A DNA stretch of 40,350 nucleotides from a virus. Location of the stretch: the IMG/VR virus record IMGVR_UViG_3300045988_141150. One strand, written 5' to 3'. This document shows, one piece after another, positions 1 to 33,819 of the stretch. The notes under the pieces were generated by a model. That model was not told the DNA's origin and ran no database searches. It worked only from the letters and a program-made list of their open reading frames with translations. The position numbers were made by a program, and so were the translations under genes. The first letter of the stretch is position 1, and each line of letters opens with the position of its first letter.

Positions 1-95
1 CACGAACATTGAACGCATGATTGCGTTCCATGTGGGCGAAAATGACTATGAATTGACCCTGATTCAGAAGCGAAAGCCCAAAAACTGACAAAAAA

Positions 96-130
96 GGGTG
101 AAAAACCGCTGAAAAATGCGGTTTTTCACC
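96..130. other. Inverted repeat GAAAAACCGC-N8-GCGGTTTTTC. It could act as a bidirectional terminator or simply be an RNA hairpin.
   Basis: A 10-bp perfect stem is visible in the sequence, with a T-run on the minus-strand side. Confidence 0.3.
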
Positions 131-205
131 CGAAAACAAGTCAAAAAATGCAAAAAATAATGGTTGAGAGAACGATGGTAAACCTCAATCAATAGAGAGG
201 ATTTT

Positions 206-622
206 GTGTCAATGGAAAAGATTACTATTAAACTACGCCGATTTAAGGACGGTAGACCGCCTGTTTCAATGGAGTTTATGCCCGATTGTGGCGAGAATCT
301 GAAAGACGTTCAAGCGGTCTACTTTTTCAAGTTTTACAACAACAACAAACTTGAATTTAATAAAGTAGGCACTTCCGCAAAAGACGTTGTAGGGCGCTTG
401 CGTGATGAAATCGGCGAGTATTCAAAAAAGTATCCTATCACGCGAGTTGAAATTCATCGAATCCGCTCTTGCGGAGACTACCCCGCCGAGGGCGCGGAAA
501 GCGCGTTGCGTGCGGAACTGATTAGACGCTATCCCAAAGCGTTTAGAAAGAATGACCGCTTTTTTAATGTGGACATTAGCCCCACGGTGTTCGATGAAAT
601 CGTAAGCGCATTTCTTGCATAA
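206..622 (+). CDS. Hypothetical protein of 138 aa. The start is GTG at 206 or ATG at 212.
   Basis: The ORF is in the track. An AGAGAGGA RBS lies upstream and a terminator hairpin lies downstream. Confidence 0.5.
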   Translation: MSMEKITIKLRRFKDGRPPVSMEFMPDCGENLKDVQAVYFFKFYNNNKLEFNKVGTSAKDVVGRLRDEIGEYSKKYPITRVEIHRIRSCGDYPAEGAESALRAELIRRYPKAFRKNDRFFNVDISPTVFDEIVSAFLA

Positions 623-632
623 ATATTCAATC

Positions 633-665
633 AGCAGGTTGACTAAAACCTGCTGATTTTTTTTG
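633..665 (+). terminator. Rho-independent terminator.
   Basis: Hairpin CAGCAGGTT-N7-ACCTGCTG followed by a run of eight T. Confidence 0.7.
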
Positions 666-677
666 TGCATTTTGCCT

Positions 678-707
678 ATTGACAAGCGGGGAAAAGTGTG
701 GTATAAT
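678..707 (+). promoter_or_regulatory. Sigma70-like promoter of family B: TTGACA, an 18-nt spacer, TATAAT.
   Basis: The hexamers match consensus. The upstream element TGTGCATTTTGCCTATTGACA is conserved in three copies, at 667, 784 and 1171. Confidence 0.6.
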
Positions 708-710
708 TGG

Positions 711-737
711 CCGGCCGTAAACTGACGCCACGGCCGG
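711..737 (+). other. GC-rich hairpin immediately downstream of the promoter: CCGGCCG-N13-CGGCCGG.
   Basis: A 7-bp GC stem is visible in the sequence. Confidence 0.5.
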
Positions 738-783
738 AATTTCGTATCAATAGGCAAGTTCAACAATTTTTGAGCGAAATGTT

Positions 784-832
784 TGTGCATTTTGTCTATT
801 GATTTTATCCCGAAAATGTAGTATCTTATAAT
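784..832 (+). promoter_or_regulatory. Second copy of the family-B promoter element, with a poorer -35 (TTGATT/TTTTAT) and TATAAT at 827..832.
   Basis: It shares the upstream motif TGTGCATTTTGTCTATTGA. Spacing to the -10 is ambiguous. Confidence 0.4.
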
Positions 833-856
833 TACAGAAAGGGAGAGTGATACAAA

Positions 857-982
857 ATGCGGTGTGTTGAATGTCCGTACTACTACTGGAATGACTACGT
901 GGAGATGGAAATCTGCCATGCTGACCCCAACTGGCCCGCCCCTTGCGAATACGATGATGAACCAGAGGAGGAAGAAAAATGA
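857..982 (+). CDS. Small acidic Cys-rich protein of 41 aa: MRCVECPYYYWNDYVEMEICHADPNWPAPCEYDDEPEEEEK.
   Basis: ATG follows an AAAGGGAGAG RBS. The ORF is shorter than the track cutoff. It has a paralogue immediately downstream. Confidence 0.45.
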   Translation: MRCVECPYYYWNDYVEMEICHADPNWPAPCEYDDEPEEEEK

Positions 983-1134
983 AACATTATCATTGCCCTG
1001 TAAATGGTTGGGATTGTCCTTACTACACAGACGACCCTCAGCCTTGTATGTGTACGCTGGAAGACCCATTCCACGATTGCGATGATTTCGCATCGATGTG
1101 GGATGAAGATGATGATTACACAGATTATGATTAA
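979..1134 (+). CDS. Small acidic Cys-rich protein of 51 aa: MKHYHCPVNGWDCPYYTDDPQPCMC..., a paralogue of the previous gene.
   Basis: ATG overlaps the upstream stop (ATGA). It shares the C-P-Y-Y and D-P-x-x-P-C motifs and is followed by a terminator. Confidence 0.45.
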   Translation: MKHYHCPVNGWDCPYYTDDPQPCMCTLEDPFHDCDDFASMWDEDDDYTDYD

Positions 1135-1140
1135 AATTTT

Positions 1141-1171
1141 CGGGCAGAAAAATCTGCCCGAATTTTTTTTT
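1141..1171 (+). terminator. Rho-independent terminator.
   Basis: Hairpin CGGGCAGA-N4-TCTGCCCG followed by a run of nine T. Confidence 0.7.
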
Positions 1172-1214
1172 GTGTAAAATGCCTATTGACAAAGCCTGCG
1201 GTTTGTGGTATAAT
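1171..1214 (+). promoter_or_regulatory. Third family-B promoter: TTGACA at 1186..1191, a 17-nt spacer, TATAAT at 1209..1214.
   Basis: Consensus hexamers plus the conserved upstream TGTGTAAAATGCCTATTGACA. Confidence 0.6.
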
Positions 1215-1227
1215 AAAGGCGGGGCTG

Positions 1228-1257
1228 GCCGGGCCGGGGTGGGACGTCCCGGCCCGA
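1228..1257 (+). other. GC-rich hairpin downstream of the promoter. It contains the perfect palindrome GGGACGTCCC.
   Basis: GGGCCGGG...CCCGGCCC stem, visible in the sequence. Confidence 0.5.
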
Positions 1258-1336
1258 TTTCCCGATCGGTATACCCATATGCGAAATTTTTCATACTTCT
1301 AGCACCTCTCCATATGGCCCAAAAAAATCCCGAAAA

Positions 1337-1365
1337 TTGACTTTTTATAAAAAATATGTTATAAT
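1337..1365 (+). promoter_or_regulatory. Copy of the family-A repeated promoter motif: TTGACT, a 17-nt spacer, TATAAT.
   Basis: It matches the recurrent motif TTGAyTTTTTATAAAAAATA-TATAAT. Confidence 0.5.
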
Positions 1366-1475
1366 GATAAAAAAAGACTTTTTTAAGCCCGCGTAGGATC
1401 ATATGCCTTTATGATTAATTAAAAATTGCTTCGCCCTTACATTGTTTCACGCGTATGTTTTCATTCAAAAAAATC

Positions 1476-1504
1476 TTGACATTTTTAAAAAAAAAGTATA
1501 TAAT
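1476..1504 (+). promoter_or_regulatory. Family-A promoter: TTGACA, a 17-nt spacer, TATAAT. It drives the gene at 1536.
   Basis: Consensus hexamers, followed by ATATATAGAAAATAAGAAAAGAGG. Confidence 0.6.
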
Positions 1505-1535
1505 ATATATAGAAAATAAGAAAAGAGGTATTCAT

Positions 1536-1913
1536 ATGGATATGAATGATATTGTTGCTCGTCTGAAAAATGGTGAGGACGCTCAGACTATTGCGGACGA
1601 GATGGAAAATGCTCTGAATGATGCGATTAAGCAGGTGGAGAAGGAAACCAAGCAGGCCGATCGGAAGACCGCGCTCGCGCAAGAAATCGCCGATCGGATT
1701 AACGAGTATGCCGCTCTTAATGGCCACAAGGATTCCGCGTTGACCGCGTCCGATGTGGAGACTATCTTTGCTGAGGTTTACGGTCTTATGAACGGGGTCA
1801 ACGATCTTATTGACGCGCTTTTCCCCAAGAGCACACAGGTAAAGGTTAAGAAGGTCAAGAAAACTGATGATGATGTAATTGCCGAGTTTTTGAACACTTT
1901 CATTAATAAGTGA
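1536..1913 (+). CDS. Hypothetical protein of 125 aa.
   Basis: In frame within track ORF 1455..1913. ATG follows an AAGAGG RBS. A terminator lies downstream. Confidence 0.6.
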   Translation: MDMNDIVARLKNGEDAQTIADEMENALNDAIKQVEKETKQADRKTALAQEIADRINEYAALNGHKDSALTASDVETIFAEVYGLMNGVNDLIDALFPKSTQVKVKKVKKTDDDVIAEFLNTFINK

Positions 1914-1985
1914 ACAATGTGTCGGGTGAGATATTTTTCATCCTAAGAATTGACAATTTCACCAAGAATTGCCTAATATGAAAGA

Positions 1986-2016
1986 AGAGAGACTAAAAAA
2001 AGTCTCTCTTTTTTTT
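1986..2016 (+). terminator. Rho-independent terminator.
   Basis: Hairpin AGAGAGACT-N6-AGTCTCTCT followed by a run of eight T. Confidence 0.7.
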
Positions 2017-2257
2017 AGGTTCGGAGATCGGAGACGGGAAAAAGTGGTTGGTGGTTTAGTAAAACCGATCGGCACCACACTCTCGCAATTTTCGCTATTT
2101 TAGCAATTTCTACAATTATTCCACGTCGTCCGAATTATCCAAACCTTTAATTACTATCCAAAAGCGAATCAACCAATATAGGTCTATTAACGGTCTCTTC
2201 CAGCGTTCCATAGGCAATATCCAACAGCCACACCAATTAAAAACCAAATAATACCAC

Positions 2258-2662
2258 TCATACAAGCAACTCCTCCAACTTTGTCTTAAATACACTATCA
2301 AGAATGTCATCAGCAAGCGTTCTCTTACTGAGATCCACATCTTCTGATCCAGAAGCAACCCCATTAACGAGGGCGCTTGTGTCCGAAGTCGTCTGCGGCT
2401 GCTTCTCAAACGCGGGCTTCACATATCTATATTCATTCTCGATATATTCTATCTTACCTTGCTCAGTAATTCGACCAAGAACCTTACCATTAAAAACCAA
2501 CTTATTACAGTCATCCCAAATAAGATATGCGCCTTGCGTATTCTCCCTATTAAAAAACTCTTTCTTAGTAGTAGCAATTACATTCCAATTGCGGAAAACG
2601 CCTACCTTTTCTCCATTATTCTTTTTCAGTTCTTCAGTTGTAAATTTCATTTCAGTTTTCAA
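2258..2662 (-). CDS. Hypothetical protein of 134 aa.
   Basis: The ORF is in the track and has no in-frame TAG. Confidence 0.5.
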   Translation of the reverse strand: MKTEMKFTTEELKKNNGEKVGVFRNWNVIATTKKEFFNRENTQGAYLIWDDCNKLVFNGKVLGRITEQGKIEYIENEYRYVKPAFEKQPQTTSDTSALVNGVASGSEDVDLSKRTLADDILDSVFKTKLEELLV

Positions 2663-3139
2663 ATCCTTACTTTCATTTCATTTTTTGAATAGTTCCCCGA
2701 GACAAATACCCCTGCTTTACGCAGAAATAACCTACCCCGGTATTCCATTTTAAAATTATATTTCTTTCTTTTATTATTTATATTATAATATATTATTTAT
2801 TATAAATCAAATAAACTCCTAAAGAAATGGATTTTCTTCTATTGATTCAGGTCTATCCTCATATTTCATTTTAATTGGTTTTGTACTATCTGGAACAACA
2901 AAATAAATAGTATTATCTTTCATATATAAATCAGGTTTTATCATATTTGTTTTATCTATCATCTTATCAAACTATTCTTGCGTTCCTCTTACAAATCTTA
3001 CTATTGAAGGATTGCCTTTTCCGCCCCTTACTTCTTCATAATTATATTCCATTACTTTTTACTCCTTTTGCTCTCATTACTGCCCCTGAATTACCCAGCC
3101 GATATATATTAAATATTATCTATTATATATATATTAATA

Positions 3140-3382
3140 GGAACTTTTTGTTCCGAAAATATAGGCAATTCGGAACTAACGGTTCCAAACATAAGGGGCA
3201 TTTTGGAACTAACGGTTCCGCAGTCCCTAATAATTCATCACGTTTTAAATGAATGGAACTAACGGTTCCGAATTTAATGTTAAAATTCAAATTTGTCTTC
3301 TTTCGGAACTTTTTGTTCCACTTTACTATTATTAATTATCTATTTTTGAATAACAACCTATCCCTTCGGAACTTTTTGTTCC
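3140..3382. repeat. Array of six palindromes GGAAC-N4/5-GTTCC. GGAACTTTTTGTTCC occurs three times and GGAACTAACGGTTCC three times.
   Basis: Exact copies sit at 3140, 3172, 3205, 3255, 3305 and 3368. They lie in a 600-bp non-coding gap between two minus-strand genes. Confidence 0.8.
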
Positions 3383-3711
3383 AGAAAATCATTACAATTA
3401 TCATAAAAATCATATTTTCCTTCCGCGGTTTCGACTAAATAGTTATTATTCTTTAAATCATTTATACCAGCATCAATAGCCTTGCGGACTGCCCTTGCTT
3501 CACTCGCCTTTGAATAATCTTTTCCTAACCAATTGGCATAAGCGGTCGGATTCATAGTCCAAACAAAATTATTAGTATTACCAGCTAAATATAAATATAA
3601 TCTTAAACCATTCAATGTTAAACTCCCAGTAGCCTAACCCAACGTAGGAGTGTTTATTGAAGTAAAATTACCACTCTATAAAACTTCTTTATGAATCTTA
3701 AATAGGCTCAT
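3358..3711 (-). CDS. Hypothetical protein of 117 codons. It is readable only with TAG as sense, with two in-frame TAG.
   Basis: It extends track ORF 3358..3615 upstream through two in-frame CTA (minus-strand TAG) codons to an ATG at 3709..3711. Confidence 0.45.
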
Positions 3712-3887
3712 TATTTCTTGCCCATTAATTCATCCAGAGCCTAAACTAACTCCGGAGTCTTTTCATATATCCAACACATAAAGTTAGGCTTCCGCGGATT
3801 TGCGGTTGTTGTTATTGGATATATTCCTTTCTTTTCTAATTCTAAATATATTCTTAATGAATATATAATTTTATTGGCATTTGGCAT
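3711..3887 (-). CDS. Small hypothetical protein of 58 aa with one in-frame TAG.
   Basis: ATG follows an AAAGGAG RBS on the minus strand. Its TAA overlaps the downstream ATG. Confidence 0.4.
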
Positions 3888-3916
3888 ATTAGCGACTCCT
3901 TTAAGCAATTAAAATA

Positions 3917-4474
3917 TTATTCTAAATATTTAAATGGAGCCAATCTTGATACTTTTTTATTATGTTCCGATTGAAAAATATAATCTAATGGAAGTTGAAT
4001 TCCATCTTTAATCGGATAAGCATAAAATTCGAGACAATCTTTACGCTCTCTTAGGTATCCATGATGAACTAATAAGTCAAAATTAAATACAATATCTTCT
4101 ATATCTTTACAATACTAAATATCTGTATTTAAGATATCATTAAAATGAATATAATCTCCATCCTTTTTATTCATTACATAACACCATAACTCAAAGTTAA
4201 TATAATAAGCGAATGTGTATGTAAATAAATAAAGCGGAACTCCATTATATGCTTTATGTGAAGCCAAAGGCGGAATCTCTCTATTTATTTTAATAGGTTT
4301 AGTAAAATCTAATACTGCTCCTGTTTCATATAAATCATAATTATCAGGACTATTTTTTATAACTTGATAATGTTCCTTTTCAGCAATCTATTCAATATCT
4401 TTAACCGCTCTCATACTACCTTTCTTATAATAGTATTTGTCGTGGAAAAAAGTTATCAATTCCTTTTTAGTCAA
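3917..4474 (-). CDS. Hypothetical protein of 185 codons with two in-frame TAG and a TTG start.
   Basis: An AAAAGGAGGAGG RBS on the minus strand precedes a continuous frame that ends in TAA. The two in-frame TAG hide it from the standard-code ORF track. Confidence 0.45.
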
Positions 4475-4871
4475 TTTATAAGTCCTCCTCCTTTTCTTTT
4501 TAATTGTTCTATAATAAATAAAAATTTTTTTAATACTTTTAATTGCGTTTGCCCACAAATTTTTAAATATTTTTCTAAAAGTAATAATTTGTCTTACATT
4601 TTAATACAAAATGGTAAAAATTTTCTACAATTTTAACTAACGCGGTTTTCCCGTCTAATGTTCCTTCTATCCTAAGCATAGCGATCTCTAATATCTACAT
4701 AAGCGACTATGAAAAATTGCCTACAATTTTTACCTATTTTAATTACATTTAATATGTTTGCCCAAGCGCTTTTATTTTTTATTTAATTCAAAAAACATTT
4801 ATTGATTTTTATTAAATTTTAATATATAATATAAATATAAAATAAAGAAAAACTATTAAAGGTGATAAAAA

Positions 4872-5069
4872 ATGCTAGCTAAACTTATTGATAATCAAGG
4901 TCAAACTCATATCATCAATACGACCCATATTCATTCAATTTCCGTAAAGAATTCTGGGTCGGATAAACTTGTGATGGTTTTTTGGGACAATGAAACAAAA
5001 ACCGCGTATTATGTAAAACCCACTGAGTATAGCACTTTTATCAATTCTATTTTTAAGGAGGATAAGTAA
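4872..5069 (+). CDS. Hypothetical protein of 65 aa.
   Basis: The ORF is in the track. An AAAGGTGAT RBS lies upstream, and a family-A-like promoter lies at about 4795 to 4850. Confidence 0.55.
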   Translation: MLAKLIDNQGQTHIINTTHIHSISVKNSGSDKLVMVFWDNETKTAYYVKPTEYSTFINSIFKEDK

Positions 5070-5070
5070 T

Positions 5071-5409
5071 ATGTCTGTTGATTTTGGTTCTAAGCTCGTG
5101 TGTGGCTACAAAGTCTCTAAGAACCTTCTTGAGAACTATGATAATATGGCTGAGGCTATTGAACAGCTTACCGAAGAAGGTTATTGGCATCGCGCAAGCT
5201 GCTATGATAACGACGAAAATCCTATCTTCGGCTATCTTCTCGGTAAGTCTTCCGCGGGCGAGGCCGTCCGCATCGACAACATCTTCATCGCTCCGCAGGA
5301 GTATTATCGCCTTAACGACACAATGAAGGAAGCTTACGCAAAGTTTCTCAAAATCCCCATCGAAAGCCTTGATGATCCCGAGATTTTTCTAATCTCTACA
5401 ATTTCTTAA
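5071..5409 (+). CDS. Hypothetical protein of 112 aa.
   Basis: The ORF is in the track. An AAGGAGGA RBS lies upstream. It is tightly packed with its neighbours. Confidence 0.6.
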   Translation: MSVDFGSKLVCGYKVSKNLLENYDNMAEAIEQLTEEGYWHRASCYDNDENPIFGYLLGKSSAGEAVRIDNIFIAPQEYYRLNDTMKEAYAKFLKIPIESLDDPEIFLISTIS

Positions 5410-5425
5410 AGAAAGGAAAATAAAT

Positions 5426-5680
5426 ATGAAACAATGCCCTGTTTATTATGAAGCACGCTATTGGGACGATTCTGATAAAATGGATAGACTTACGTGCGGT
5501 TTTATCTTCGCGGAAACCCTCGCAGAAGCCGGCCGTTGGGCAGAAGAATATTTCGAAGATCTTATCACTATCGCATTTACCCCTCTTGACGAGGGCCCTT
5601 TGCGCGTCAATCATGATCTTGCTAACAAGATTCTAAAATTTGACGGCGAAGATGCTCCATATTCTGCTAAAGTGCTATGA
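5426..5680 (+). CDS. Hypothetical protein of 84 aa.
   Basis: The ORF is in the track, with an AAAGGAAA RBS. Confidence 0.55.
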   Translation: MKQCPVYYEARYWDDSDKMDRLTCGFIFAETLAEAGRWAEEYFEDLITIAFTPLDEGPLRVNHDLANKILKFDGEDAPYSAKVL

Positions 5681-6120
5681 TGACTTTCCTATGTAAGAAT
5701 TGCGCTTACCTTTTGTCTAATGGTGCTTGTCCAATAGCAGGATATTCACCCGACCCCAATCAACCCGTTTGTAATAGCTTTAGCGACACTAAGTATACTT
5801 GTAAAGTTTGTCATAACCCAATTTTCCATAAGCAAATGGTTATTGACGACAAAGGAAATACTTATTGCGATAAATGTTTCGCAAGACTTAGCACATGCGC
5901 TAATTGTGAACAAAATGTGAACTGCGCATTTAATGATTCTCCCGACACGCCGAAAATGGTCCAAAAGCGAGAAATCGTTGGAAATATGCAAGCCGTCACG
6001 AATGTCCGTAATCCCGACATTGTCGAAAAGACGTGTAAGAAAGGTTGTTCTTGTTTTAACGAAGAAAATGGCTGTATGAGAGATTTCAATTGTTGCGATA
6101 AACTTAACCCTATTCTTTAA
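5677..6120 (+). CDS. Cys-rich zinc-ribbon protein of 147 aa.
   Basis: It has multiple CxxC pairs, such as CKNCAY, CKVCHNP, CDKC and CANC. Its start overlaps the upstream stop. Confidence 0.55.
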   Translation: MMTFLCKNCAYLLSNGACPIAGYSPDPNQPVCNSFSDTKYTCKVCHNPIFHKQMVIDDKGNTYCDKCFARLSTCANCEQNVNCAFNDSPDTPKMVQKREIVGNMQAVTNVRNPDIVEKTCKKGCSCFNEENGCMRDFNCCDKLNPIL

Positions 6121-16490: not shown

Positions 16491-16657
16491 TGGATAATTT
16501 GTTTATGTGTTATGCGAATCACACTGAGGAACTTGAAAGAATTATCAAGGAAATTAGTGCGGGCGCGACGATTTTCCAGACTGAGCTCACTTTGACGAAT
16601 ATCGATATGGAATATATCCGACGAGAAGTGGAGAGGAGACTAAATGGCCGAAACTAA
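16490..16657 (+). CDS. Small hypothetical protein of 55 aa.
   Basis: ATG overlaps the upstream TAA. Confidence 0.4.
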   Translation: MDNLFMCYANHTEELERIIKEISAGATIFQTELTLTNIDMEYIRREVERRLNGRN

Positions 16658-18011
16658 TGTAATTGGAATTTTTGAATTCCCACATAATATTTTTGATAAA
16701 ATTTTAGATAGATTTAGTCAAGCAGTTCAAGATAATAAGTATCAGAAACTTGATTATGTCTTTTGGCGTAAACTAAAAACTTCTAAAAATAATGTCAGAA
16801 TTGTTGTCAAATCTGACCTCAATGATAAGATTTTCTTTGATATTTACCCTGATGTTTACACTATAAATTATTCTTTTTTTGTTGATGGCATTGATGGATC
16901 TTTTGGTAAATATCTGCTTGATAATATTTGTAATATTTTTACAGATAAGTATGTAATCAAGTGCTCTGAGAAGTTCTTTGAGTATAAGATGCGTAGAGCG
17001 AAGAAGGCTACTGAAAAGAATAATAATATAAGTAAGCCCGGGGATGGACTTGATTATACCAAAGTATTTGACAAGGGAGTATGGAACACAGAATTTTCTT
17101 GCACGAATACTATTTCTGATGAAGAAGCCCAGAAGATTCTTGGAAAGCTACATACTACACCTATTGTGGCAGTTCCTGATAGCGATTGTAGTCTTCAAAC
17201 TGGGAAGGTTGCTTCGATTAATTCTAATACAATTTTCGCTACTACTCTTACTGATCCTACCACAATTACACTCGGTAGTCAAATTGACGCAATTAAAGAT
17301 AAGTGTGCTATGATTGATACCGATTATATCAATGATCGAATCAATAAAGTTTTGAATGAACAAAATACATTTAACAATAATGTTGATGATAAGAAAGGAA
17401 ATAATAAAATGAAGGCGTTTAATTTTGATTTTGGCCCCTGCACCAATGATAACATTCGTATGTCTATGTATGGTCTGGCTGTGAAGAATGCGGCTGGTAC
17501 TTGGGTTTCTTATAACCCTGAGAGTAAGGAAATTATCGACGTCGATGTCTTCAACTTTGATGGCGGTAAGTTTCTTTACAAGATGCCGGTTGCCATCAAG
17601 GACGTTAAGGTCGGCGACATTGTTATCCACAACCGCAAGGCGATGTTTGTGATTGATGTGTCTGAAACGGGTATGACCGCGATTGATCCGCAGGCCGGTG
17701 AGGAGAAGAAGATTCTGCTTACCAAGTCCCCGTTTGGTTTCAATTTCGCAACGAAGGTCGTGTCTCTCTTTAATATGACTTCTGATGCGCCCACTCCGGA
17801 TGCACCGTTCGGCAATATGCTCCCCTTCCTCATGATGAGTGAGAATAGTGGCGAGTTTGACATGAACACCATGCTGATGCTCTCTATGATGGGCGGTCAG
17901 GGTGGTATGGATTTCTCTAAGAATCCTATGATGATGTATTTCCTTATGAAGGACTCCAAGAACGCGGATGATCTTCTTCCGCTCATGTTCATGGGTAATC
18001 TTTGTAAGTAA
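16644..18011 (+). CDS. Hypothetical protein of 455 aa with a Met-rich C-terminus.
   Basis: The ORF is in the track. Confidence 0.6.
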   Translation: MAETNVIGIFEFPHNIFDKILDRFSQAVQDNKYQKLDYVFWRKLKTSKNNVRIVVKSDLNDKIFFDIYPDVYTINYSFFVDGIDGSFGKYLLDNICNIFTDKYVIKCSEKFFEYKMRRAKKATEKNNNISKPGDGLDYTKVFDKGVWNTEFSCTNTISDEEAQKILGKLHTTPIVAVPDSDCSLQTGKVASINSNTIFATTLTDPTTITLGSQIDAIKDKCAMIDTDYINDRINKVLNEQNTFNNNVDDKKGNNKMKAFNFDFGPCTNDNIRMSMYGLAVKNAAGTWVSYNPESKEIIDVDVFNFDGGKFLYKMPVAIKDVKVGDIVIHNRKAMFVIDVSETGMTAIDPQAGEEKKILLTKSPFGFNFATKVVSLFNMTSDAPTPDAPFGNMLPFLMMSENSGEFDMNTMLMLSMMGGQGGMDFSKNPMMMYFLMKDSKNADDLLPLMFMGNLCK

Positions 18012-18035
18012 ATATAATAAAACCCCTTTCGCAAG

Positions 18036-18075
18036 AAAGCCCTTTGATTGACCGCAAAGGGCTTTCTTTATTTTT
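18036..18075 (+). terminator. Rho-independent terminator.
   Basis: Hairpin AAAGCCCTTTG-N8-CAAAGGGCTTT followed by a T-run. Confidence 0.7.
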
Positions 18076-25378: not shown

Positions 25379-26878
25379 ATGTTTAAAGAAATGGATATTA
25401 GAGCAATATCTTTAGTTTCTTCATGTGGATGTAATTTACATTGTAAATATTGTCTTATTGAGAATACTTTAAATAATTGCTCTGCAAATTTACAACATGA
25501 AACTATTAAAGCTTTAAATGATGGTACTTTTTTAAATAATGTAAAAGGTATTTTTAAACGTTTAAATCTTGATAGATATAAAATAGAATGTTTTACTTTA
25601 TGGGGTCAAGAGCCTACATTGACATTACATCTTCTTACTGATCATTTGGAAGATTGGTTTAATTATTTCCCAAATATTAATCATATTGACTATTCTACTA
25701 ATGGGATGGATTTTCCTGAAAGAACTGTTAATTTTATTAAAAAGGTTGATGAATTAGCAAATAATGAACTTGCTTTAGAAGTTCAATTCTCTTATGATGG
25801 CACTTACTCAACCAATAATATTAGAAATGCTAATAATGAAAAAATCTTTGAGACTGCTTCAACTGTAATTAAAGAATTAAATAAAATTAAATTTCATAAT
25901 GTAAATGTATCTATTCAATTACATGGTGTTCTTTCTGGAGCTTTAATTCATGAACTTAATACAACTCAAAAAGTTCATGATTATTATAAAGATTTAGATA
26001 ATTTTGGATTTGAATTAGCTGATATTAATCTTAATTAGAGAGTTGAAGTAAATAGTAGTGTATCTATTTGCCCTGAGAATCCAAGAGATGGATCAGTTGA
26101 TGAACGTATTGAATATGAGTCTTTCTTACAACGCATTGTTAATATTGATGTAAGTGATTTTCATGACCCACATCTTCCAGTTAGTATTATTATTGGTTAT
26201 CGTCATCTTTATGAAGAAGTATTTTCTGATTTACATGGATTTACTGGAGAAGATCGTCCAATTACGCCCCAAGAATTAATGCGATTAGTTATGGAAGGAA
26301 ATCAAGAAGCAATTACTGTAGCTTCAAGAAATAATTTTTGTAGTGGTAATTTTAATGAATTAAAATTACTTTATGATGGTACTATGATGTCTTGTCAAAA
26401 CTTTATGTTTGATCTTGATGGTAATAATGTTAAAGATGATGGTACTATTGGAGCACAATTGAGAAAAGACACTCGTCGCACTAAAACTGATTGCATTAAT
26501 CTTTTAACTGATAGTGAAGAAGATATTAATAAAGTTATATATAAATATAATATGTATAAAACACATTCCTTCCCATTTATGTTTCAAGCAACTGTAAATA
26601 CTTTACAAATGCTTAATGAATGCAATCAATTAAATTCTATTTACAAGTATAATCCTGATAAATTATTAAGATTGGCATTAATTGCAACAAAAATTGATGC
26701 TTGTACTTATAATAATTTTATTTCTTCTGGTAGCGCGTTGTTAAGAAGTGTAGGCACTTTAAGAACTCAATCAGCACTATTTATGTATGTAGATAGAGAA
26801 AATAATTTACTTAAACCCGAAGAAGAATGGTTCCGAAATACTGAAAATATGAATGAATATAGAGGAGAAAGTAATTAA
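25379..26878 (+). CDS. Radical SAM enzyme of about 499 codons with one in-frame TAG at 26036.
   Basis: It carries CGCNLHCKYC, a CxxxCxxC motif. Track ORFs 25379..26038 and 26279..26878 are in the same frame, joined through a TAG with no TAA or TGA between them. Confidence 0.6.
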
Positions 26879-28281
26879 TGAATATTAGTGAAGGTTGTCA
26901 ATTAGATAATAATAAATATTTTGAAAAATTTATAGATAATTATATTTTTAATAGGGATCACCAAGAGGAAGGATACTGGATTAATGGAGAGTCTTTTGAG
27001 CTTATTATAAGACCCGAATGTAATCAACAATGTGAATATTGTTATGTTGCACGGTATGGAGATAAACTCTATCCGATGGAGAAACGCGCCGATAAGGAAA
27101 CTCTTGTTCATAATACAGATATTATTTTGAATTATATCTTTAAAGAAAGAAAAGTTTTATTTCATGAAATGGAACTTTTTGCTGGAGATTTATTTTATGA
27201 TGATATTGGATTTGAAATTCTCGAATTAATGTTTAAATATTATAAAGAATTATTTGATGAACATCCAAATATTTTTAATTTCCATCCTCGTATTGTAATT
27301 CCTAATAATTTTAGTTTTGCTATTGATGATAAAAAAGCTAAAAAAATGGAAGAGCTTTTAGCTAAATTTAAAACTATCAATATGGAAATAAGCCTTTCTT
27401 GTTCTATAGATGGACCTTATAATAGTGTGCGCGAGCGCGATAAAGATGATAGTTATTATACTAAAATTCTTGAATTCCTTCAAAGAAATCCTTGTGGTAT
27501 TCATCCTATGATTTCTCCAAGTAATATTGAGAGTGCTATTAAGAATTTTGATTGGTGGGACGAACAATATGAAAAGTATAATCTTGCTGGTGAAGACATT
27601 CATGATTTTCAACCTATGTATTTGGAAGTCCGCAATGATGAATGGACTGATGAGAAATTAGATCATTATCTTGAATTTTTAACTCATATGCTTGAAGTAA
27701 GATTTCATAAAAATGGTGAGTCTGTAGATAAATTGGCAAGACATATTTTCTTAGGAGATGGAAAAGAAGGTTCTTTACCTTGTCTTGGTAATTATGACCC
27801 TATTGGATTAACTTCTACTTGGAATAGTGAAGAATATACTTGCGCGATTTCGCATTAGACTTGTCTTTATGTGGCGAGTTTTGAATTTGCGCCTTGCCAT
27901 AGAACTTCTTATCCTCAGTTTCTTGGTGGACGTCTTGATGTAAAAGATGACAAAGTAGTTGGTATTACTGCAATTAATCCTACTGTGTATAGTGTAATTA
28001 AAACGAATAATACACATATGAATATTGGTTGTTTAACTTGTCCTTTTGATCCTTATTGTTTAAAAGGATGTTTAGGCGCTCAGTATGAAGCCACAGGTGA
28101 TTTATTTGTTCCCGGTGAAAGCGTTTGTAAATTACATAAAACACATTTAACTTTTTTAGTAAAGACTTATTGTGAGTTGGGATTAACTAAAATTGCAGTT
28201 GAAAAAAATTATTTTAAGAGTGAAGCAGATAAAGAAAAATGGCTTACTTTATGTCGTAAATTGGGGTATTATAATGATTGA
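26878..28281 (+). CDS. Radical SAM/SPASM-domain enzyme of about 467 codons with one in-frame TAG at 27856.
   Basis: It has an N-terminal CNQQCEYC radical SAM motif. Its C-terminal Cys cluster CLTCPFDPYCLKGCLG...VCKLH has the SPASM pattern. Track ORFs 26878..27858 and 27871..28281 are in the same frame. Confidence 0.6.
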
Positions 28282-28576
28282 AGAAATGAAAAGACAAATT
28301 CAACACTTAGATGATACTTTTGATCCTTCTAATGTTGGAGATTATAAAGATTTATTATATGTAATCTATTTAAATTGGATTGAAAATAATGGAGAAAACG
28401 AAGAAGTCAATTCTCTTATTAACAATTTAATTAAAAGAATTATTGATTCTAGCATTAATGATAATAATAATTGTGATAATTGTAATGAAGATGAAGATCC
28501 TAATATGAGTGAAGATTATTTAATTTATCGCCATTTCTTAGGATATAAAATTCCTGGCTATTGGCGTAATCATTAA
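28274..28576 (+). CDS. Small acidic protein of 100 aa. It could be an accessory protein or a precursor.
   Basis: ATG lies in the frame of track ORF 28193..28576 and overlaps the upstream TGA. Confidence 0.45.
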   Translation: MIEEMKRQIQHLDDTFDPSNVGDYKDLLYVIYLNWIENNGENEEVNSLINNLIKRIIDSSINDNNNCDNCNEDEDPNMSEDYLIYRHFLGYKIPGYWRNH

Positions 28577-29157
28577 TGTTAATTAATTTATATAATGCTC
28601 GTCAAACTTTATTAAGATCAGTAAAGTTTGACGAGCGTGAATGCGATGATATTGTTTTTGGATTAAATTTTCCAAAAGAAATTACTTTTTGCAAAATTGT
28701 AAATAATTCAAATGATATAGAATATTCTTCATTAAATTATCTATATAGTCAATTAAAAGATTTAGAATATAAAGATATAAAAATTATTGAATTAGTTTTT
28801 AATCAAAAACAAAAATTTACGTTTGAATCTACAGTAAAATCTATTTTTTATAGAACAATGTTATATTCAAGTTAGGGACAATTGGAATTTAAATTATATT
28901 TAACTTTACGATTTGAAGAAGAACATCCAATTATTTACGATAAAGAAGAATAGATTTTAAAGTGTGACAAAAATTGTAAACAGTTAAATAGAAAAATACA
29001 TCGTTGTGAATTTTTTCATAGTGATTTAAATGATATAAATGAAATTTGTACGGAATGTTTTTTGTAGGAAAGAGATAACCAAATAAAAGAATTGGTTAAT
29101 TATAATAGAGATATTATAAATGTTTTGGAGAATAAATATGGAAATAGATAGAACTAA
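28576..29157 (+). CDS. Hypothetical Cys-containing protein of about 193 codons with four in-frame TAG.
   Basis: It extends track ORF 28576..28875 through TAG codons to a TAA at about 29155. Confidence 0.4.
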
Positions 29158-31216
29158 AAATTATCAAGGGATTCCTCCTTATACTAATCCAATATGGAAA
29201 TCGGTTTATGATGGTGTTAGTTTAGAAATGCATATTGTAGATCATTGTAATCTTAATTGCGCAGGATGTAATCATTTTTCCCCTTTAGCAGAACCTTGGT
29301 ATATTGATTTAGATGATTTCCGTGATCAGATTACTTTTGCTTATAAAAAAATTCCAAATATAAAACTTTTTATGATTTTAGGTGGAGAACCTACTTTGCA
29401 TCCAAAATTATTTGAAATATGTTAGATTGCTAGAGAAGTTTTCCCAAAAAATAAAGTAGAAATTAAAATATTAAGCAATGGGTGTCATTTACAAGATGCT
29501 TTTAAACATGAGAAAGAATATCAAGATATGGGAGTAATATTTGATATTACTACTTATGGGAAATATACTGATCATAAAGCGGTAGAATATTTAGACAGTC
29601 ATGGTTTAGGTTTTAATCATAATTCAAGATTATTTATGCGACAATAGCTTGTAAATGAAGCAGGAACTACTGATATAAATGAAGTATATTTTCATAAATG
29701 CCCGCATTAGTTACCTTGTTTTACTTTAAAAAATTATAAAATTTATATATGTCCTTTTTCTGCACATTTGGATATTTATAGAAAAAAATATAATGTAAAT
29801 ATTCCAGAAGATGAAAGTGATTATTTGCGATTAGAGGATATAAATAATTTAGATGATTTACATAATTTTATTTTTAAGCCTAAAAATATTTGTAGATATT
29901 GCGATGGAACTATGTCTAAAGCCTCTTGGATTTGGCACAAATATTATGATACAAAATCGGAATTTATAGTTCCAATGGAAGATGCTTATTTTAGAGATTA
30001 TGATTTTTATTTAAAATTAGTTAATGATAAAGAAAATTTTTTAGAAAATTATTAGTTATTTAAAGAAAACAGATGCCCAATTGAATTTAGATATAATACT
30101 TATTATTTAAAAAAATGTTTTACTCGTTTTATTGATGGAAAAATGGATATTATAATACCTTATTATAATATGAATGATTAGCAAATTATTAATTTGTATA
30201 ATAATTTATCTACCCAAACAATTATAAAAGATTGTTGTGTATATTTTATTAGCGACCATTCTTTCTATGATAAAAAACTTATTGAGATATTTGATGAAGC
30301 GAGTTTTCCTTGTTTCTTTTTTAAGAATTTAAAACGAAAAGGACCAGGTCTAACTCGTAATTTAGGATTAGAATATTCTTTTAATAAATATGTGTTATTT
30401 TGGGATTCTGATGATTTATTCCCAAATGATAATGTTTTAGAAATTTTATATAATTCAATAAAACATAATGAGAAAGATTTTGGAGTATTTAAAATAGCTA
30501 ATACTGATAAATCAGTTGAAAAGATTAATTTAATTCTTAAAAGAGATTTTCTTAATAAAAATAATATAAAATATTCAAAATTTTTCTTTGGAGAAGACAG
30601 TATTTTCTTGGATAGATGTGATATTTATGGTGAATCTTATGAGTTAGAAGACTAGAATTTAGGTCTTTATATAACTTAGTTAGAAGACAATCCTAATTGT
30701 TTATCTCATTCTAATTCTAACATGGTAATTACAGCATATATTAATAAAATAATTGTATTTTTTGCTAATTTTATTGATGTTTTGAAATTAGAAAATATTG
30801 ATGAAAATCGTAAACAAAGTACTTTAAGACGGAATCTTTATAGAATTATTAATGAAATAAAATCAATAAGTGATTTAGATTCTTCTTTTTATGGATATGA
30901 AAATAATTATTTTTTAGAAAAAATTCTTCTTTTAATTTATTATATTTTATATACTATGTATAATTTATATAGTAACAAAGAAGATTTTAATAATATTCCC
31001 AATTTGTGTAATTTAGATAAACAAATTATAGAAGATATCAAAAGTTAGAAAATTAAATTTAGTCTTCTAAGAGGAGAATGTATAACTAATTTTGATGATA
31101 TTAAAAATGAAATTTATCCATTGTTAAATTATCTTAACAATGAATTATGCTATGTGCCTACTTATGAATGGTTTCTGAATTATTTAGATGGAAAAGGAGA
31201 GAGTATTTATGATTGA
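29138..31216 (+). CDS. Continuous 692-codon frame with 9 in-frame TAG and no TAA or TGA. It has an N-terminal radical SAM domain (CNLNCAGCNH, GGEPTLHP and a C-terminal CRYCDG) and a central GT2 glycosyltransferase domain (IIIPYYN...GPGLTRNLG...FWDSDD). It is one fusion protein or two to three cistrons.
   Basis: Track ORFs 29120..29425, 29768..30055, 30194..30655 and 30722..31048 all share one frame and are separated only by TAG. The frame ends at a TGA at 31214. Confidence 0.5.
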
Positions 31217-31391
31217 AACTTATCAAGAATATAAAGAAAAAGTTTATTTTCTTCTAAATAATTTTTTAGATTTTACTAAAGGAGATAAACCTTATTTATT
31301 TAATATGCCTTCAAAATTAGGCAATCTTCCTAATCTAAATGAATATTTATATTTTTGTTTTAATAAATCTGATGCAGGAGAAAATAAATGA
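31209..31391 (+). CDS. Small protein of 60 aa.
   Basis: ATG follows an AAAGGAGAGAG RBS, in the frame of track ORF 31188..31391. It ends in TGA. Confidence 0.45.
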   Translation: MIETYQEYKEKVYFLLNNFLDFTKGDKPYLFNMPSKLGNLPNLNEYLYFCFNKSDAGENK

Positions 31392-31930
31392 GGTTTACTG
31401 ATTATCATTTTGGATAGGCAGAGTCTGACTTTTGGACTTTATTAAAAGAATTTCTATTAAGGTTTGATCCCAATAGTATTTATGATTTTTGGATTTTATT
31501 TATTTATTTTTAGTTAGGTATTATTAGAAAAGATAGATTTATCATTTATTAGGTATAGTATATTTTAAAAGAAAAAATAGATTTTGAAGAAATTAATGAA
31601 GTAAATTTTAATACAATTATTCCAATAGAAAAGATAAATTTATCTAGTTTAAAAGATTGTATTTGGATAAGCTATTGGATTTGTTAGTATAATTATTAGA
31701 ATGATGAAAATTTAATTTTAATTTATAGTGAGAAAATATTTAATAATCTTACTAATATTTTTGAGCCGGATATTGTTATAGATATTCCAATAGTGTAGTA
31801 GAGTAATAAAATATGTAAAATGTGCGGTTTAGAGTCTAAATCTAATGGATAGAATATACCATTTTTTAAAATAAATGATAATAAATATTTATGTCCTAAT
31901 TGTTATTATTTATTAAAATTAAATGAATAA
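31388..31930 (+). CDS. Hypothetical protein of 180 codons with a C-terminal CxxC...CxxC zinc ribbon. It has about 10 in-frame TAG.
   Basis: ATG overlaps the upstream TGA. The frame is free of TAA and TGA for 543 nt in a region of about 25% GC. It is invisible to the standard-code track. Confidence 0.4.
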
Positions 31931-32023
31931 TTATTAAAACCTACTTTTATAGTAGGTTTTAATTGATTTTTAATAAAAAATAATGTATTATAATTATAAG
32001 ATAAATGAAAAGGGTGTGTTTAT

Positions 32024-33808
32024 GTGAATAATTATAATCAACATTATAAAGAAATAAGTCCTATTGAGACTGTTAATAATATTAAAAATTTTTTAGAAGG
32101 ACGCGGATTTACTTGTGTTGAGGAAGCTTTACGACAAGAACAATCAACTACTTGGAGTCTTGTATTAAATCTTGAATACAAAGGACATTTTGTGCTAAAA
32201 ACTTATGGCAAAGGTGTTACAAAAGAATTCGCCAGAGCTTCTGGTTATGCGGAAATGTATGAGCGTTTTTGTAATGGAATGCACTATCTTTGTAATTCTT
32301 TTCTTTGTGCGGAAAAAATTGAATTAAATAGAAAAAATTATGGTTATTCTTTGTTTAAAAATGAAAAGCCTTTAAGTTATAAAGAGGCACTTGGAGGAGA
32401 AGATACTCTTTTATATAAACTTTTTGATCGTTTGAATAAGAAAGATAATGGTTTATTAGAGGATTATTTTAAAACTATTTATAATAATGAATTTTTTGGA
32501 ATACCATTTAAAGGAGTCAACATTAATAAAACTTTATATATGGATCCTCGTCTTCTTCAACGTTATCATGGTAGTTCGGGAATGGCAGCCGGCAATACTT
32601 TTAATGAAGCCTTAAATCAAGGTTTATCTGAAATTTTCGAGCATTATGTTTTAAGTAATTTTTATATTGATATTGATAATAAAGATTTTTATTTTTATGA
32701 TACAGATAGTATTAAAGATGAAAAATTAAAAAATATTATTAGTGCGATTAAATCTCATAATAATAACTTTTATATTATTGATATGTCAAGAACTTATAAT
32801 GTGCCTGTTATGGTAGCAATTTTGATTAATAAATATAGTGGTACTGTAGCTATTAATTTTGGTGCTTTCCCTGTATTTGAAATTGCAGTTGAGCGAGTTT
32901 GTACTGAAATGTATCAAAATTGTTTTTCTTTTGATACAAGAAAAACTTCAGTTGTATCTCCGTATTATTCTTTAGATAAAGAAGATATGGTTATAGATGG
33001 CGGTTCTTGTATTACAAATCTTAATACTTTTCCTGAGAGTTTATTCTTGAATAAGAAATTTGTAAATACTATTAATAAAGATGTATTTTTATCTTATACT
33101 GATAAAAATTACTCTAATGATGAAATCTTAGAGCATAATAAAAAGATTGCTACTAATATTGGAGCAGATATTTATTGTGCTGATGTATCTTTAATTGATA
33201 CCGTATCTGCGATTAGTATTTATGTTGATAATCTTGACGGGCTATGGAAATCTTTCTTTGATAGATGCCAAGGAGTTAAAGAAACTGGAGAAGCAATTAC
33301 TATAACTAAAAATAAACATTTGGCCATTAAAAACTATTTAAATAATAAAGATAAAGTATATGATGTAATTAAATATTGTCTTGATTATTATAATATTACT
33401 TTTGACAAAATTGTAGATAGATTTTGTGGTTTACTTACTCATGGAGATCAATTAGTTGCTTATAATAATAAAAATATATTATTAACACCTAATGAGATGT
33501 TTGTTAAAAACCTTTATATGGATGCAACAGGATATTTATTAGAAGATGAAGGATTTTCTTTAGATATTTCAGTTAGTTGTTTTTATACTTATTATAAAAA
33601 ATATTTAACTTTATTAGCATATGTTCACAGTAGAAAATATACTAAAGAAGATATGATTAAAATTTTCAAAGAATTTGATTATACTTTTACTGATGAAGAT
33701 TTTAAACATATTACGGATAGAAAATATTTAGTAGAAAAATGTATTTTAGAGCCTATGTATAATACATTTAGAAGCAATGATTTTAAAGAAATGATTAAAA
33801 ATTATTAA
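32024..33808 (+). CDS. YcaO-domain protein of 594 aa.
   Basis: HGSSGMAAGNTFNEALNQGLSEIFEHY matches the YcaO ATP-binding signature, which has the form xGSNGLAsGNTxxEAxxQGLxExxER. The ORF is in the track and has no TAG. Confidence 0.65.
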   Translation: MNNYNQHYKEISPIETVNNIKNFLEGRGFTCVEEALRQEQSTTWSLVLNLEYKGHFVLKTYGKGVTKEFARASGYAEMYERFCNGMHYLCNSFLCAEKIELNRKNYGYSLFKNEKPLSYKEALGGEDTLLYKLFDRLNKKDNGLLEDYFKTIYNNEFFGIPFKGVNINKTLYMDPRLLQRYHGSSGMAAGNTFNEALNQGLSEIFEHYVLSNFYIDIDNKDFYFYDTDSIKDEKLKNIISAIKSHNNNFYIIDMSRTYNVPVMVAILINKYSGTVAINFGAFPVFEIAVERVCTEMYQNCFSFDTRKTSVVSPYYSLDKEDMVIDGGSCITNLNTFPESLFLNKKFVNTINKDVFLSYTDKNYSNDEILEHNKKIATNIGADIYCADVSLIDTVSAISIYVDNLDGLWKSFFDRCQGVKETGEAITITKNKHLAIKNYLNNKDKVYDVIKYCLDYYNITFDKIVDRFCGLLTHGDQLVAYNNKNILLTPNEMFVKNLYMDATGYLLEDEGFSLDISVSCFYTYYKKYLTLLAYVHSRKYTKEDMIKIFKEFDYTFTDEDFKHITDRKYLVEKCILEPMYNTFRSNDFKEMIKNY

Positions 33809-33819
33809 TAGGAGATTAT

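Follow-up and report, generated by a model that had tools for sequence, protein, structure and literature searches.

In T4-like phages, strong sigma-70-like early promoters occur together with an adjacent G/C stem-loop, which in one subclass lies 3' of the -10 box, in units known as PeSL (promoter-early stem-loop) cassettes (Arbiol et al. 2010, PMC2839356; Comeau et al. 2014, PMC4122927). PeSLs are located among ORFans in plastic genome regions, have been shown to have both promoter and terminator activity, and shuffle genes by recombining with one another (PMC2839356, PMC4122927). A hairpin of another kind is the promoter of the phage N4 virion RNA polymerase (vRNAP), with a 5-7 bp stem, a 3-nt loop, and a conserved loop purine (PMC4496689). 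Here we describe promoter/hairpin units in a 40,350-nt stretch of viral DNA (IMG/VR record IMGVR_UViG_3300045988_141150, hereafter "the window"), the first 1.3 kb of which contain three copies of a promoter repeat and two GC-rich hairpins.

The three repeats belong to a lineage-wide family of predicted early promoters for the host RNA polymerase (sigma-70/sigma-A type), and where small early-gene cassettes border on one another, terminator, promoter, and hairpin combine into a composite cassette. We favor the reading, with a probability of about 0.5, that this is an early-promoter/hairpin boundary cassette whose units are substrates for recombination. On this reading the hairpin would act on RNA, both as a structure at the 5' terminus and as an obstacle to antisense transcription and read-through.

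Promoters and hairpins in the window

The window contains three promoter copies, one inverted partial copy, two hairpin elements, and a conserved flank:

657-707, plus strand: promoter copy 1 (family 2, consensus subtype), with upstream element TTTTTTTTGTGCATTTTGCCTA, -35 box TTGACA at 679-684, a 17-nt spacer, and TGTGG-TATAAT (702-707)
709-742, plus strand: GC hairpin element 1, consisting of GG, CCGGCCGT/AAACTGACGCC/ACGGCCGG (711-737), and AATTT
746-766, minus strand: inverted upstream element and -35 box, TTGTTGAACTTGCCTATTGAT on the minus strand, with no -10 box
782-827, plus strand: promoter copy 2 (family 2, weak gene-proximal subtype), with TTTGTGCATTTTGTCTA, TTGATT at 799-804, a 17-nt spacer, and TATCTT at 822-827, then the leader and ribosome-binding site (RBS) ATAATTACAGAAAGGGAGAG
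1164-1214, plus strand: promoter copy 3 (family 2, consensus subtype), with TTTTTTTTGTGTAAAATGCCTA, TTGACA at 1186-1191, a 17-nt spacer, and TGTGG-TATAAT (1209-1214)
1227-1260, plus strand: GC hairpin element 2 ("class B"), consisting of GGC, CGGGCCGGG/GTGGGACGT/CCCGGCCCG (1230-1256), and ATTT
1260-1282, no strand assigned: conserved flank CCCGATCGGTATACCCATATGCG, with the palindromes CCGATCGG and CATATG, found after every class-B hairpin in relatives

The 21-mer TGTGCATTTTGCCTATTGACA at 664-684 is repeated with three mismatches at 784-804, which was matched in none of 100 shuffles, and a third copy, TGTGTAAAATGCCTATTGACA, is found at 1171-1191. Common to the three copies are the 19-nt upstream element and the -35 box. 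Copies 1 and 3 agree with the sigma-70 consensus at 12 of 12 positions (TTGACA-17-TGTGGTATAAT), and have both the sigma-70/sigma-A hexamers and the 17 +/- 1 nt spacing; copy 2 reads TTGATT-17-TATCTT. The -10 box of copies 1 and 3 is TG-extended (TG/TRTG, TGTGGTATAAT), and the A+T-rich sequence upstream consists of a T-run and the conserved 19-nt element before the -35 box. The TRTG-type extended -10 box is typical of Gram-positive hosts.

The first-pass annotation had placed the three copies at 667, 784, and 1171, each with a TATAAT; its heading gave each a strong hairpin, and its text gave one to two of them. The second and third positions stand, and the first copy begins at 664. TATAAT follows a 17-nt spacer in copies 1 and 3; the one seen behind copy 2 (827-832) stands 22 nt from the -35 box, and the -10 box there is TATCTT. 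The two hairpins are confirmed at 711-737 and 1230-1256, and there is none after copy 2, which leads instead to an RBS and the ATG at 857. Comparison with relatives, among them locus L016 with a homologous unit, assigns copy 2 to a weaker, gene-proximal subtype.

The inverted element at 746-766 pairs back-to-back with 783-803. It is the remnant of an antisense promoter that, in relatives, is intact and faces the hairpin. The same form, with only the -35 box and upstream element, recurs at a paralogous unit of relatives with a near-identical flank.

Hairpin 1 (711-737) has an 8 bp stem, an 11 nt loop, and a folding energy of -15.3 kcal/mol. Hairpin 2 (1230-1256), which contains GGGACGTCCC at 1241-1250, has a 9 bp stem that can be extended by G.U pairing and a 9 nt loop, with about -21 to -24 kcal/mol. 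Transcription start sites were predicted by the standard rule of 7 +/- 1 nt past the -10 box. Since hairpin 1 begins 3 nt past the -10 box, the predicted start, G713 or G714, falls inside its 5' arm; the predicted transcript retains 5-6 of the 8 pairs, and the folding energy falls from -15.3 to between -6 and -10 kcal/mol. Hairpin 2 begins 15 nt past the -10 box, and with a predicted start near 1221 it would occupy about +10 to +36. The earlier placement of both hairpins within the first 5 to 50 nt of the transcript thus needs correction for hairpin 1, part of which is predicted to lie outside the transcript of its own promoter. The predicted gap between the 5' end and the stem is 0 nt for sense promoters of class A, 0-2 nt for antisense promoters, and about 9 nt for copy 3 of the window. 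The class-B leader (1221-1336) gave no signal as a structured RNA (z = 0.05).

The hairpin as a conserved, polar element

With the open reading frame (ORF) at 206-622 as query, we found 12 loci on IMG/VR contigs of 85-197 kb, at 86-97% protein identity, and with the neighboring gene as query a further 74, at identities down to about 40%. More than 100 related loci, on gut and rumen phage contigs of about 100-200 kb, share the promoter family and the hairpin element, and the exact 18-mer GGTATAATGGAAATTCSG was found in 20 large viral contigs. The similarity among the copies thus goes beyond a local duplication, the objection that the first-pass annotation had raised against itself.

Across these loci there are 545 distinct GC hairpins; next to promoters, a length of exactly 27 nt predominates. 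The element has a polarity, GG-[8 bp stem, 11 nt loop]-ARTTT. Among 79 distinct 27-mers, C1, G3, C6, and G7 of the stem, like the bases they pair with, are fixed at 93-100%, and co-variation is seen at positions 2, 4, 5, and 8, giving the stem consensus CSGSSCGY; the loop has ACG at its positions 3-5 and CG at 8-9. In the downstream A(A/G)TTT flank, T occurs at 77-89% at positions +3 to +5. Both this flank and the upstream GG hold whether a promoter lies to the left, to the right, on both sides, or on neither. In distant clades the length of the hairpin ranges from 23 to 41 nt.

In the pooled set, which was ascertained in part by pairing, double-sided changes occur at 7 of the 8 pairs, in 135 cells, a level reached by 0 of 500 shuffles, and the pairing register is specific when compared with slides of +/-1-3 columns. 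A test independent of pairing used 27-mers anchored on a perfect antisense promoter: at least 7 of 8 pairs form in 48 of 118, versus 1 of 118 at the control position. A second test independent of pairing used two orthologous units defined by synteny in 12 close genomes: although at least four stem variants occur there, 190 of 192 stem pairs are kept, and conservation is lowest in the loops, with an identity of 0.56-0.67 versus 0.93-0.96 for the 3' flank. Hairpin 2 of the window differs by five substitutions from that of L187, a 164-kb contig binned in a metagenome-assembled genome (MAG) and 96-97.6% identical across window positions 1-6100; four of the five make up two compensatory pairs (G-C to C-G and G-C to A-T). 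These alignments indicate that the hairpins are real, selected structures, with pairing held by compensatory changes.

Class-B hairpins have the loop GTGGRACGT and the flank TTTCCGATCGGTATACCCATATGC. The 8-bp palindrome CCGATCGG is usually followed 6-7 nt on by CATATG(C), with window sites at 1260-1282, 1657, 1690, and 2065. It is repeated 2-4 times downstream of class-B hairpins in distant relatives (L033/L034/L044/L061/L088), and also lies within promoter spacers of close relatives (TTGACA-CCGATCGG-AAAATGTGGTATAAT). The CCGATCGG/CATATG flank is probably a protein-binding site, putatively of an early regulator.

Two promoter families and their geometry

The first-pass annotation was right in distinguishing a second promoter family with an upstream element, which proves to be the family linked to the hairpins. 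Its signature is an upstream element of about 19 nt (TTTTTGTGCAnnTTGCCTA), TTGACA, a 17-nt spacer, a TRTG-type extended -10 box, and a GG discriminator; hairpin-associated promoters have TTTTTGTGCAnnTTgcCTA 5' of the -35 box and TGTGRTATAAT-GG. The consensus from related loci is TTTTTTTGTnnAtTTTgcCTA-TTGACA-17-TGTGaTAtAAT-gGg for sense promoters (89 copies) and tTTTgTgcAAaTTTtCTC-TTGACA-17-GTGGTATAAT-GGaAAaT for antisense promoters (60 copies). By comparison, 570 hairpin-free promoters have an A-tract upstream, an AT-only spacer, and an A/T-rich start region. A scan of the whole 40-kb window found three members only of the upstream-element family and about 12 promoters of family 1 (TTGAYW-TTTTATAAAAAATAATA-TATAAT-ATATATAGAAAG), whose conserved AT-only spacer suggests a second regulatory class:

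1337, 1476, 7558, 11566, 15803, 15918, 19734, 21235, 38137, 38397, 38639, and 38727: family-1 promoters, TTGAYW-TTTTATAAAAAATAATA-TATAAT-ATATATAGAAAGTTAAGAAAGG
1337-1365 and 1476-1504, plus strand: the tandem family-1 promoters among these, 3' of copy 3 and before ORF 1536-1913

The distances between promoters and hairpin are strict. Sense promoters stop 2-4 nt (mode 3) before the hairpin and antisense consensus promoters lie 7-8 nt after it, where "sense" and "antisense" are defined by the direction in which the query gene and the ORFs of loci L001 and L039 run, an assignment that may fail in some distant loci. By the 7-nt rule, sense transcripts would start inside the 5' arm and antisense transcripts at the foot of the hairpin. 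Among perfect antisense promoters, 38 of 43 (88%) in close relatives and 42 of 86 in distant ones fire into a hairpin at exactly this distance; among perfect sense promoters, 27 of 151 and 22 of 475, respectively, do so. Consensus promoters stand on both sides in 44 distinct units, with about 38 bp between the -10 boxes, and these two-sided units then carry a third, weaker promoter of the copy-2 type before the gene. Most units have one promoter or none.

A weak third promoter is also seen 3' of class-A units at L039 7170-7340 and at L001 1965-2090 and 4503-4650, where the predicted transcripts contain no ORF and start with GTCAAGRGG. In these transcripts small hairpins recur, their loop conserved (TACAGACC) and their stems co-varying; the transcripts have no Rfam match. 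We consider them candidate non-coding RNAs.

Cassette borders and gene turnover

The two hairpins of the window flank a small cassette, and both are preceded by a canonical terminator. Stem-loops were scored for termination with the d'Aubenton-Carafa d score:

629-664, plus strand: intrinsic terminator of ORF 206-622, with a 12-bp stem and T8 (-18.3 kcal/mol, z -7.1, d +27)
857-982 (41 aa) and 979-1134 (51 aa), plus strand: two overlapping small Cys-rich ORFs with a CPYY motif
1139-1171, plus strand: intrinsic terminator of the small-ORF cassette, with a 10-bp stem and T9 (z -5.3, d +56)

The T-run of the first terminator passes straight into promoter copy 1, and the second terminator continues into promoter copy 3. 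The Cys-rich ORFs at 857-1134 are the cargo of the cassette between the hairpin elements. Their family (NGWDCPYY...CDDF motif) occurs in at least 26 related phage contigs from many metagenomes, and the first of the two is partly deleted in L187.

In 13 close genomes, the slot between the terminator of ORF 206-622 and the class-B flank is 107, 134, about 229, 626 (the window), or 852 nt long, and the contents differ between these five length states. Aligned homology starts 3-4 nt before hairpin 2. Left of that point, four unrelated sequences occur: promoters at 3 nt and at 15 nt, a spacer that is not a promoter, and the end of a different ORF. Where close genomes have gained or lost genes, the breaks in these alignments fall exactly at the hairpin foot. 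One genome has a nearly identical hairpin at two units whose flanks are still orthologous, suggesting that conversion did not extend beyond the hairpin. Homology to the flank of unit 1 is seen at a paralogous unit that a relative carries in the same early region.

Distant relatives keep the 15-nt spacing between promoter and hairpin 2 and the CCGATCGG..CATATGC sequence after a homologue of the Cys-rich ORF. This makes the arrangement in the window the ancestral one, with loss of the cassette in several close relatives. The earlier suggestion that this module was recently acquired does not agree with such conservation, either in distant relatives or in the 96-97.6% identical genome.

Possible functions of the hairpin

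As a boundary cassette, the unit would use its hairpin mainly at the level of RNA, and differently according to where transcription starts. Sense transcripts, starting in the 5' arm, would keep a short 5'-terminal stem that could shield the 5' end and would be too weak to halt the polymerase. Sense family-2 promoters would in this way evade the hairpin, and their transcripts would continue into the downstream cassette, which would thus have two promoters in tandem, a strong distal and a weaker proximal one. The whole hairpin would be carried by RNA reading through the upstream terminator and by RNA from the antisense promoter of relatives. For these transcripts it may serve as a barrier or pause site and as end protection, insulating neighboring cassettes from each other. 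In the window, the antisense promoter of unit 1 is degenerate, and unit 2 is of class B, with the whole hairpin predicted to start near +10 of the leader. Each genome contains many copies of the unit, which for this reason could be substrates for homologous recombination and conversion that shuffle cassettes, on the principle of the T4-like PeSLs.

Several observations weigh against this proposal. The single-sequence folding z-scores are weak (-1.7 for hairpin 1 and -0.4 for hairpin 2), so that the significance of the hairpins rests on the comparative data, and the pooled covariation set was, as noted above, partly selected for pairing. The asymmetry between G.U and A.C mismatches (16 vs 12) is uninformative about the functional RNA strand, most mismatches being at the loop-closing pair. 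By the d score the hairpins are not canonical intrinsic terminators: d is -48 and -15 for the two in the window, compared with +27 and +56 for the neighboring terminators, and among 204 related hairpins it exceeds 0 in 9% in the sense and 0.5% in the antisense orientation. The 15-nt spacing of class B puts the whole hairpin in the sense transcript, and a start inside the arm is thus inapplicable to copy 3 of the window. A plain stabilizer or barrier leaves unexplained the fixed 27-nt size, the ACG/CG of the loop, and the polar ARTTT in units that lack promoters; a protein reading the folded hairpin would account better for these three features. The boundary-cassette proposal also leaves the purpose of the antisense promoter unexplained.

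A possible though improbable alternative, in our view, is that the hairpin is a recognition site for a phage or host protein that reads folded nucleic acid, such as an antiterminator or processing factor that binds the RNA of the 5' leader, a recombinase or nuclease specific for structures at cassette borders (attC-like, or similar to repetitive extragenic palindromic elements), or a phage RNA polymerase that uses it as promoter or terminator, as the N4 vRNAP does its hairpins. The closer analogues would then be the N4 vRNAP promoter or the attC sites of integrons. The size is fixed (27 nt mode), and four invariant and four freely co-varying stem positions are also what is seen in N4 vRNAP promoter hairpins (PMC4496689). 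The loop bases ACG..CG are conserved strand-specifically, the polar GG and ARTTT are present even without neighboring promoters, breakpoints fall at the hairpin foot, and conversion appears to be limited to the hairpin. The length does vary in distant clades (23-41 nt), however, the stem and loop dimensions are unlike those of N4 (5-7 bp, 3-nt loop) and boxB, and the tight coupling to sigma-70 start sites points instead to a role at the RNA end. We saw no candidate protein: neither the 40-kb window nor the 12-20 kb related loci around such units showed an RNA polymerase, a recombinase, or a HUH nuclease. A more specific form of this idea, which we hold to be slightly less probable still, is that the 27-nt hairpin (GG-[CSGSSCGY N2-ACG-N2-CG-N2 RCGSSCSG]-ARTTT) represents a new class of structure-specific site for a dedicated phage protein, either an attC-like border recombination site or a promoter or terminator of a phage polymerase, with the host promoters placed at 3 nt and 7-8 nt to control or exploit its folding. 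If so, the early region would be an integron-like, self-insulating cassette array.

It is rather unlikely that the hairpins are attenuators or non-canonical terminators, which transcripts from the consensus promoters could pass only with the help of an antitermination factor. A short, conserved T-tract comes after the very stable GC stem (77-89% T at +3 to +5), class B has the full hairpin at about +10 of its leader, and PeSL stem-loops lower downstream expression like a strong terminator (PMC2839356). Against this, both d and the tail scores (median 1.0 for the hairpins vs 4.7-5.8 for true terminators) are far under those of the real terminators nearby, an 11-nt loop is atypical, and the class-A start inside the 5' arm weakens the hairpin; boxA/boxB, put, and Rfam matches are also lacking. 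Less probable again is a sense/antisense switch, in which face-to-face promoters compete and complementary 5' hairpins kiss or form duplexes, the variable loops giving each unit its specificity. The 44 two-promoter units would suit such a switch, as the roughly 38 bp between -10 boxes means that the polymerase footprints overlap, and the loops are hypervariable between and within genomes with the structure kept. Most units, though, have one promoter or none, the conserved loop bases oppose free diversification, and the antisense promoter in the window is degenerate, yet the unit is kept in the close relative. A search of the window for second sites or trans targets of the hairpin loops found none. 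Finally, chance similarity or a purely local, functionless duplication is excluded for practical purposes. Three copies do lie within 600 bp, and short GC-rich sequences fold well by chance, as the z-scores of -0.4 to -1.7 illustrate; but the 21-mer was matched in 0 of 100 shuffles, compensatory changes are present, and related genomes contain hundreds of copies at non-homologous positions with strict geometry.

Several described hairpin types were considered and set aside. A canonical Rho-independent terminator has a GC stem-loop like those found here, and the U-tract and d score fail in both orientations; the hairpins are not canonical terminators because they lack the U-tract. The Rfam covariance models gave no family for the hairpins or leaders (window 1-3600 at a maximum E-value of 1, and six related loci at the gathering threshold), with only two sub-threshold chance hits elsewhere, and hence no match to known antitermination or leader RNAs (nut boxA/boxB, put). 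These comparisons narrow the broad list of roles in the first-pass annotation (attenuation or antitermination, RNA stability, protein binding), in that they give no support to a canonical attenuator or a known antitermination structure. Alignment of the -35 and -10 boxes by hairpin extrusion does not fit the spacings, inspected by eye, where a -35 box abuts a hairpin. A mimic of CRISPR repeats (an RNA anti-CRISPR) does not agree with 11-nt loops and several different stems per genome, nor a geminivirus or HUH-type origin with the lack of a conserved nonanucleotide loop.

If the boundary-cassette proposal is correct, a second, unrelated lineage of large phages would have evolved the solution known from T4-like phages, a promoter/stem-loop cassette that both regulates and mobilizes small early genes. 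The version here is more regular and easier to test, with a polar hairpin of fixed size, starts inside or at the foot of the stem, and an antisense promoter at nearly every hairpin. For the genomes of uncultured phages from gut and rumen, it would provide annotation rules for early regions and for the borders of cassettes, and its natural consensus promoters and candidate insulators would be a resource for use with Firmicute-type polymerases. It also raises the question of why a perfect promoter should be aimed at a hairpin, against the direction of the gene.

The early region and the phage lineage

Small plus-strand genes fill bases 1-2100: the end of an ORF, ORF 206-622 (138 aa), the two Cys-rich ORFs, and ORF 1536-1913. 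None of these small ORFs had an informative Pfam or PHROG match. An early region that reaches upstream of the window has its end in the leftmost 1.3 kb. In the early region of this lineage, which is dense with small ORFans, nearly every small gene has its own consensus promoter and terminator, and 8.5 kb of L001 contains 44 promoter-like sites, 11 of them perfect, versus 16 expected. A crude scorer found none of the upstream terminators to be bidirectional, an arrangement that would delimit a short antisense RNA; a consensus scan flagged some.

The earlier remark that the first 2.7 kb is GC-richer than the rest is correct: bases 1-2700 have 40.8% GC versus 33.5% for the whole window, the highest value of any 2.7-kb stretch. 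Other 1-kb windows of the 40-kb stretch reach 41-42%. The excess is modest and fits a distinct early module, without any sign of recent acquisition.

A 14-bp stem-loop at 96-131, directly after a plus-strand ORF, is present in all close relatives. Its T-run is on the minus strand (d = +33 on the minus strand and -50 on the plus strand), so that it would stop leftward transcription and not that of the preceding gene.

The window is part of a large uncultured phage. It had no DNA match among 50,697 deposited phage records, and its proteins are mostly orphans, the closest matches being to Enterococcus phages of about 140 kb at 26-38% identity. In those distant phages the promoter/hairpin units were not found, save one weak look-alike. 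An exact match to the protein of ORF 206-622 was found on a 2.2-kb ENA contig only, which added no genomic context. A scan of bacterial genomes with the hairpin pattern found ordinary terminators of GC-rich bacteria and MAG-binned phage contigs, L187 among the latter. Contigs of the lineage (L138, L141, L155, L156, L166, L176, L178, L182, L187, L191, L195) are present in MAGs labeled Acutalibacteraceae, Lachnospiraceae, Clostridia, Treponema, and Mollicutes; these labels are inconsistent and therefore unusable as host evidence.

Other features of the window

Between 3137 and 3383, in an AT-rich intergenic region beside minus-strand genes, are 6-7 copies of the palindrome GGAACT-N4-GTTCC (TTCGGAACTTTTTGTTCCA / GGAACTAACGGTTCC), spaced about 32-130 nt apart. 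The array looks like a putative set of operators for a dimeric regulator.

A very AT-rich block (20-27% GC) extends from 26878 to 34698. Within it are genes for a radical-SAM-like protein (26878-27855, PHROG hit) and a YcaO cyclodehydratase (32024-33805, Pfam E = 5e-28), as well as an ORF with weak similarity to peptidase U32, and the block may be a phage peptide-modification cluster resembling those for ribosomally synthesized and post-translationally modified peptides (RiPP-like).

A cluster of five tRNA genes lies at 38208-39905, with family-1 promoters between them; four are for Trp, Leu, Ala, and Ile, and the anticodon loop of the fifth is odd. Long perfect AT-rich stem-loops occur at 28597-28636 (15 bp, no T-run) and at 18033-18068 (14 bp, with a T-run). 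The latter is probably the terminator after ORF 16644-18011.

Comparison with known systems

The hairpins resemble Rho-independent terminators in being intergenic GC hairpins placed after a gene and followed by some T residues. They differ in the T-tract, which is about 3 nt long and comes after two purines, and in the 11-nt loop. With the N4 vRNAP promoters they share a small hairpin with both invariant and merely pairing stem positions, conserved loop bases, and a short homopolymer-like run beyond the hairpin. The stem of 8 bp, the loop of 11 nt, and the tie to host-type promoters set them apart, and we know of no vRNAP gene in this phage lineage.

Stem-loops at the 5' end stabilize the E. 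coli ompA and the B. subtilis aprE and ermC leaders. The units described here would be similar in placing a stable stem-loop 0-3 unpaired nt from predicted 5' ends, from sense and antisense promoters alike. Elements of the ompA/aprE/ermC type, in contrast, need no fixed size, loop sequence, or 3' flank and are not shared by convergent promoters, and the starts considered here are predicted ones. Convergent promoters are known from coliphages 186 and P2 (pR/pL and Pe/Pc), in which single face-to-face lysis/lysogeny switches with repressor operators have about 60 bp between the starts. Here too, host-type promoters converge closely enough to interfere, but they are repeated many times per genome, around a hairpin, in an early region of lytic type.

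The PeSL cassettes are the closest parallel. Both systems have a strong sigma-70-like early promoter with a conserved sequence 5' of the -35 box, repeated many times, and a stable stem-loop within the same cassette of about 100 bp. Both are intergenic among small ORFans, where ORFs are inserted, deleted, or replaced between close relatives with breakpoints in the cassette. The phage lineage described here is, however, unrelated to the T4-like myoviruses, and the stem is CSGSSCGY where that of PeSLs is typically GGGG...CCCC (polyG/polyC). The hairpin here is also an element of its own, polar, fixed in size, and conserved at certain loop bases, present in addition to a canonical terminator, and consensus promoters face it from both sides at fixed, unequal distances with strict placement of the start sites. 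PeSL activity and mini-circles have been described for T4-like phages. On this comparison, the present units have the architecture and the evolutionary behavior of PeSLs without belonging to them by descent or by sequence.

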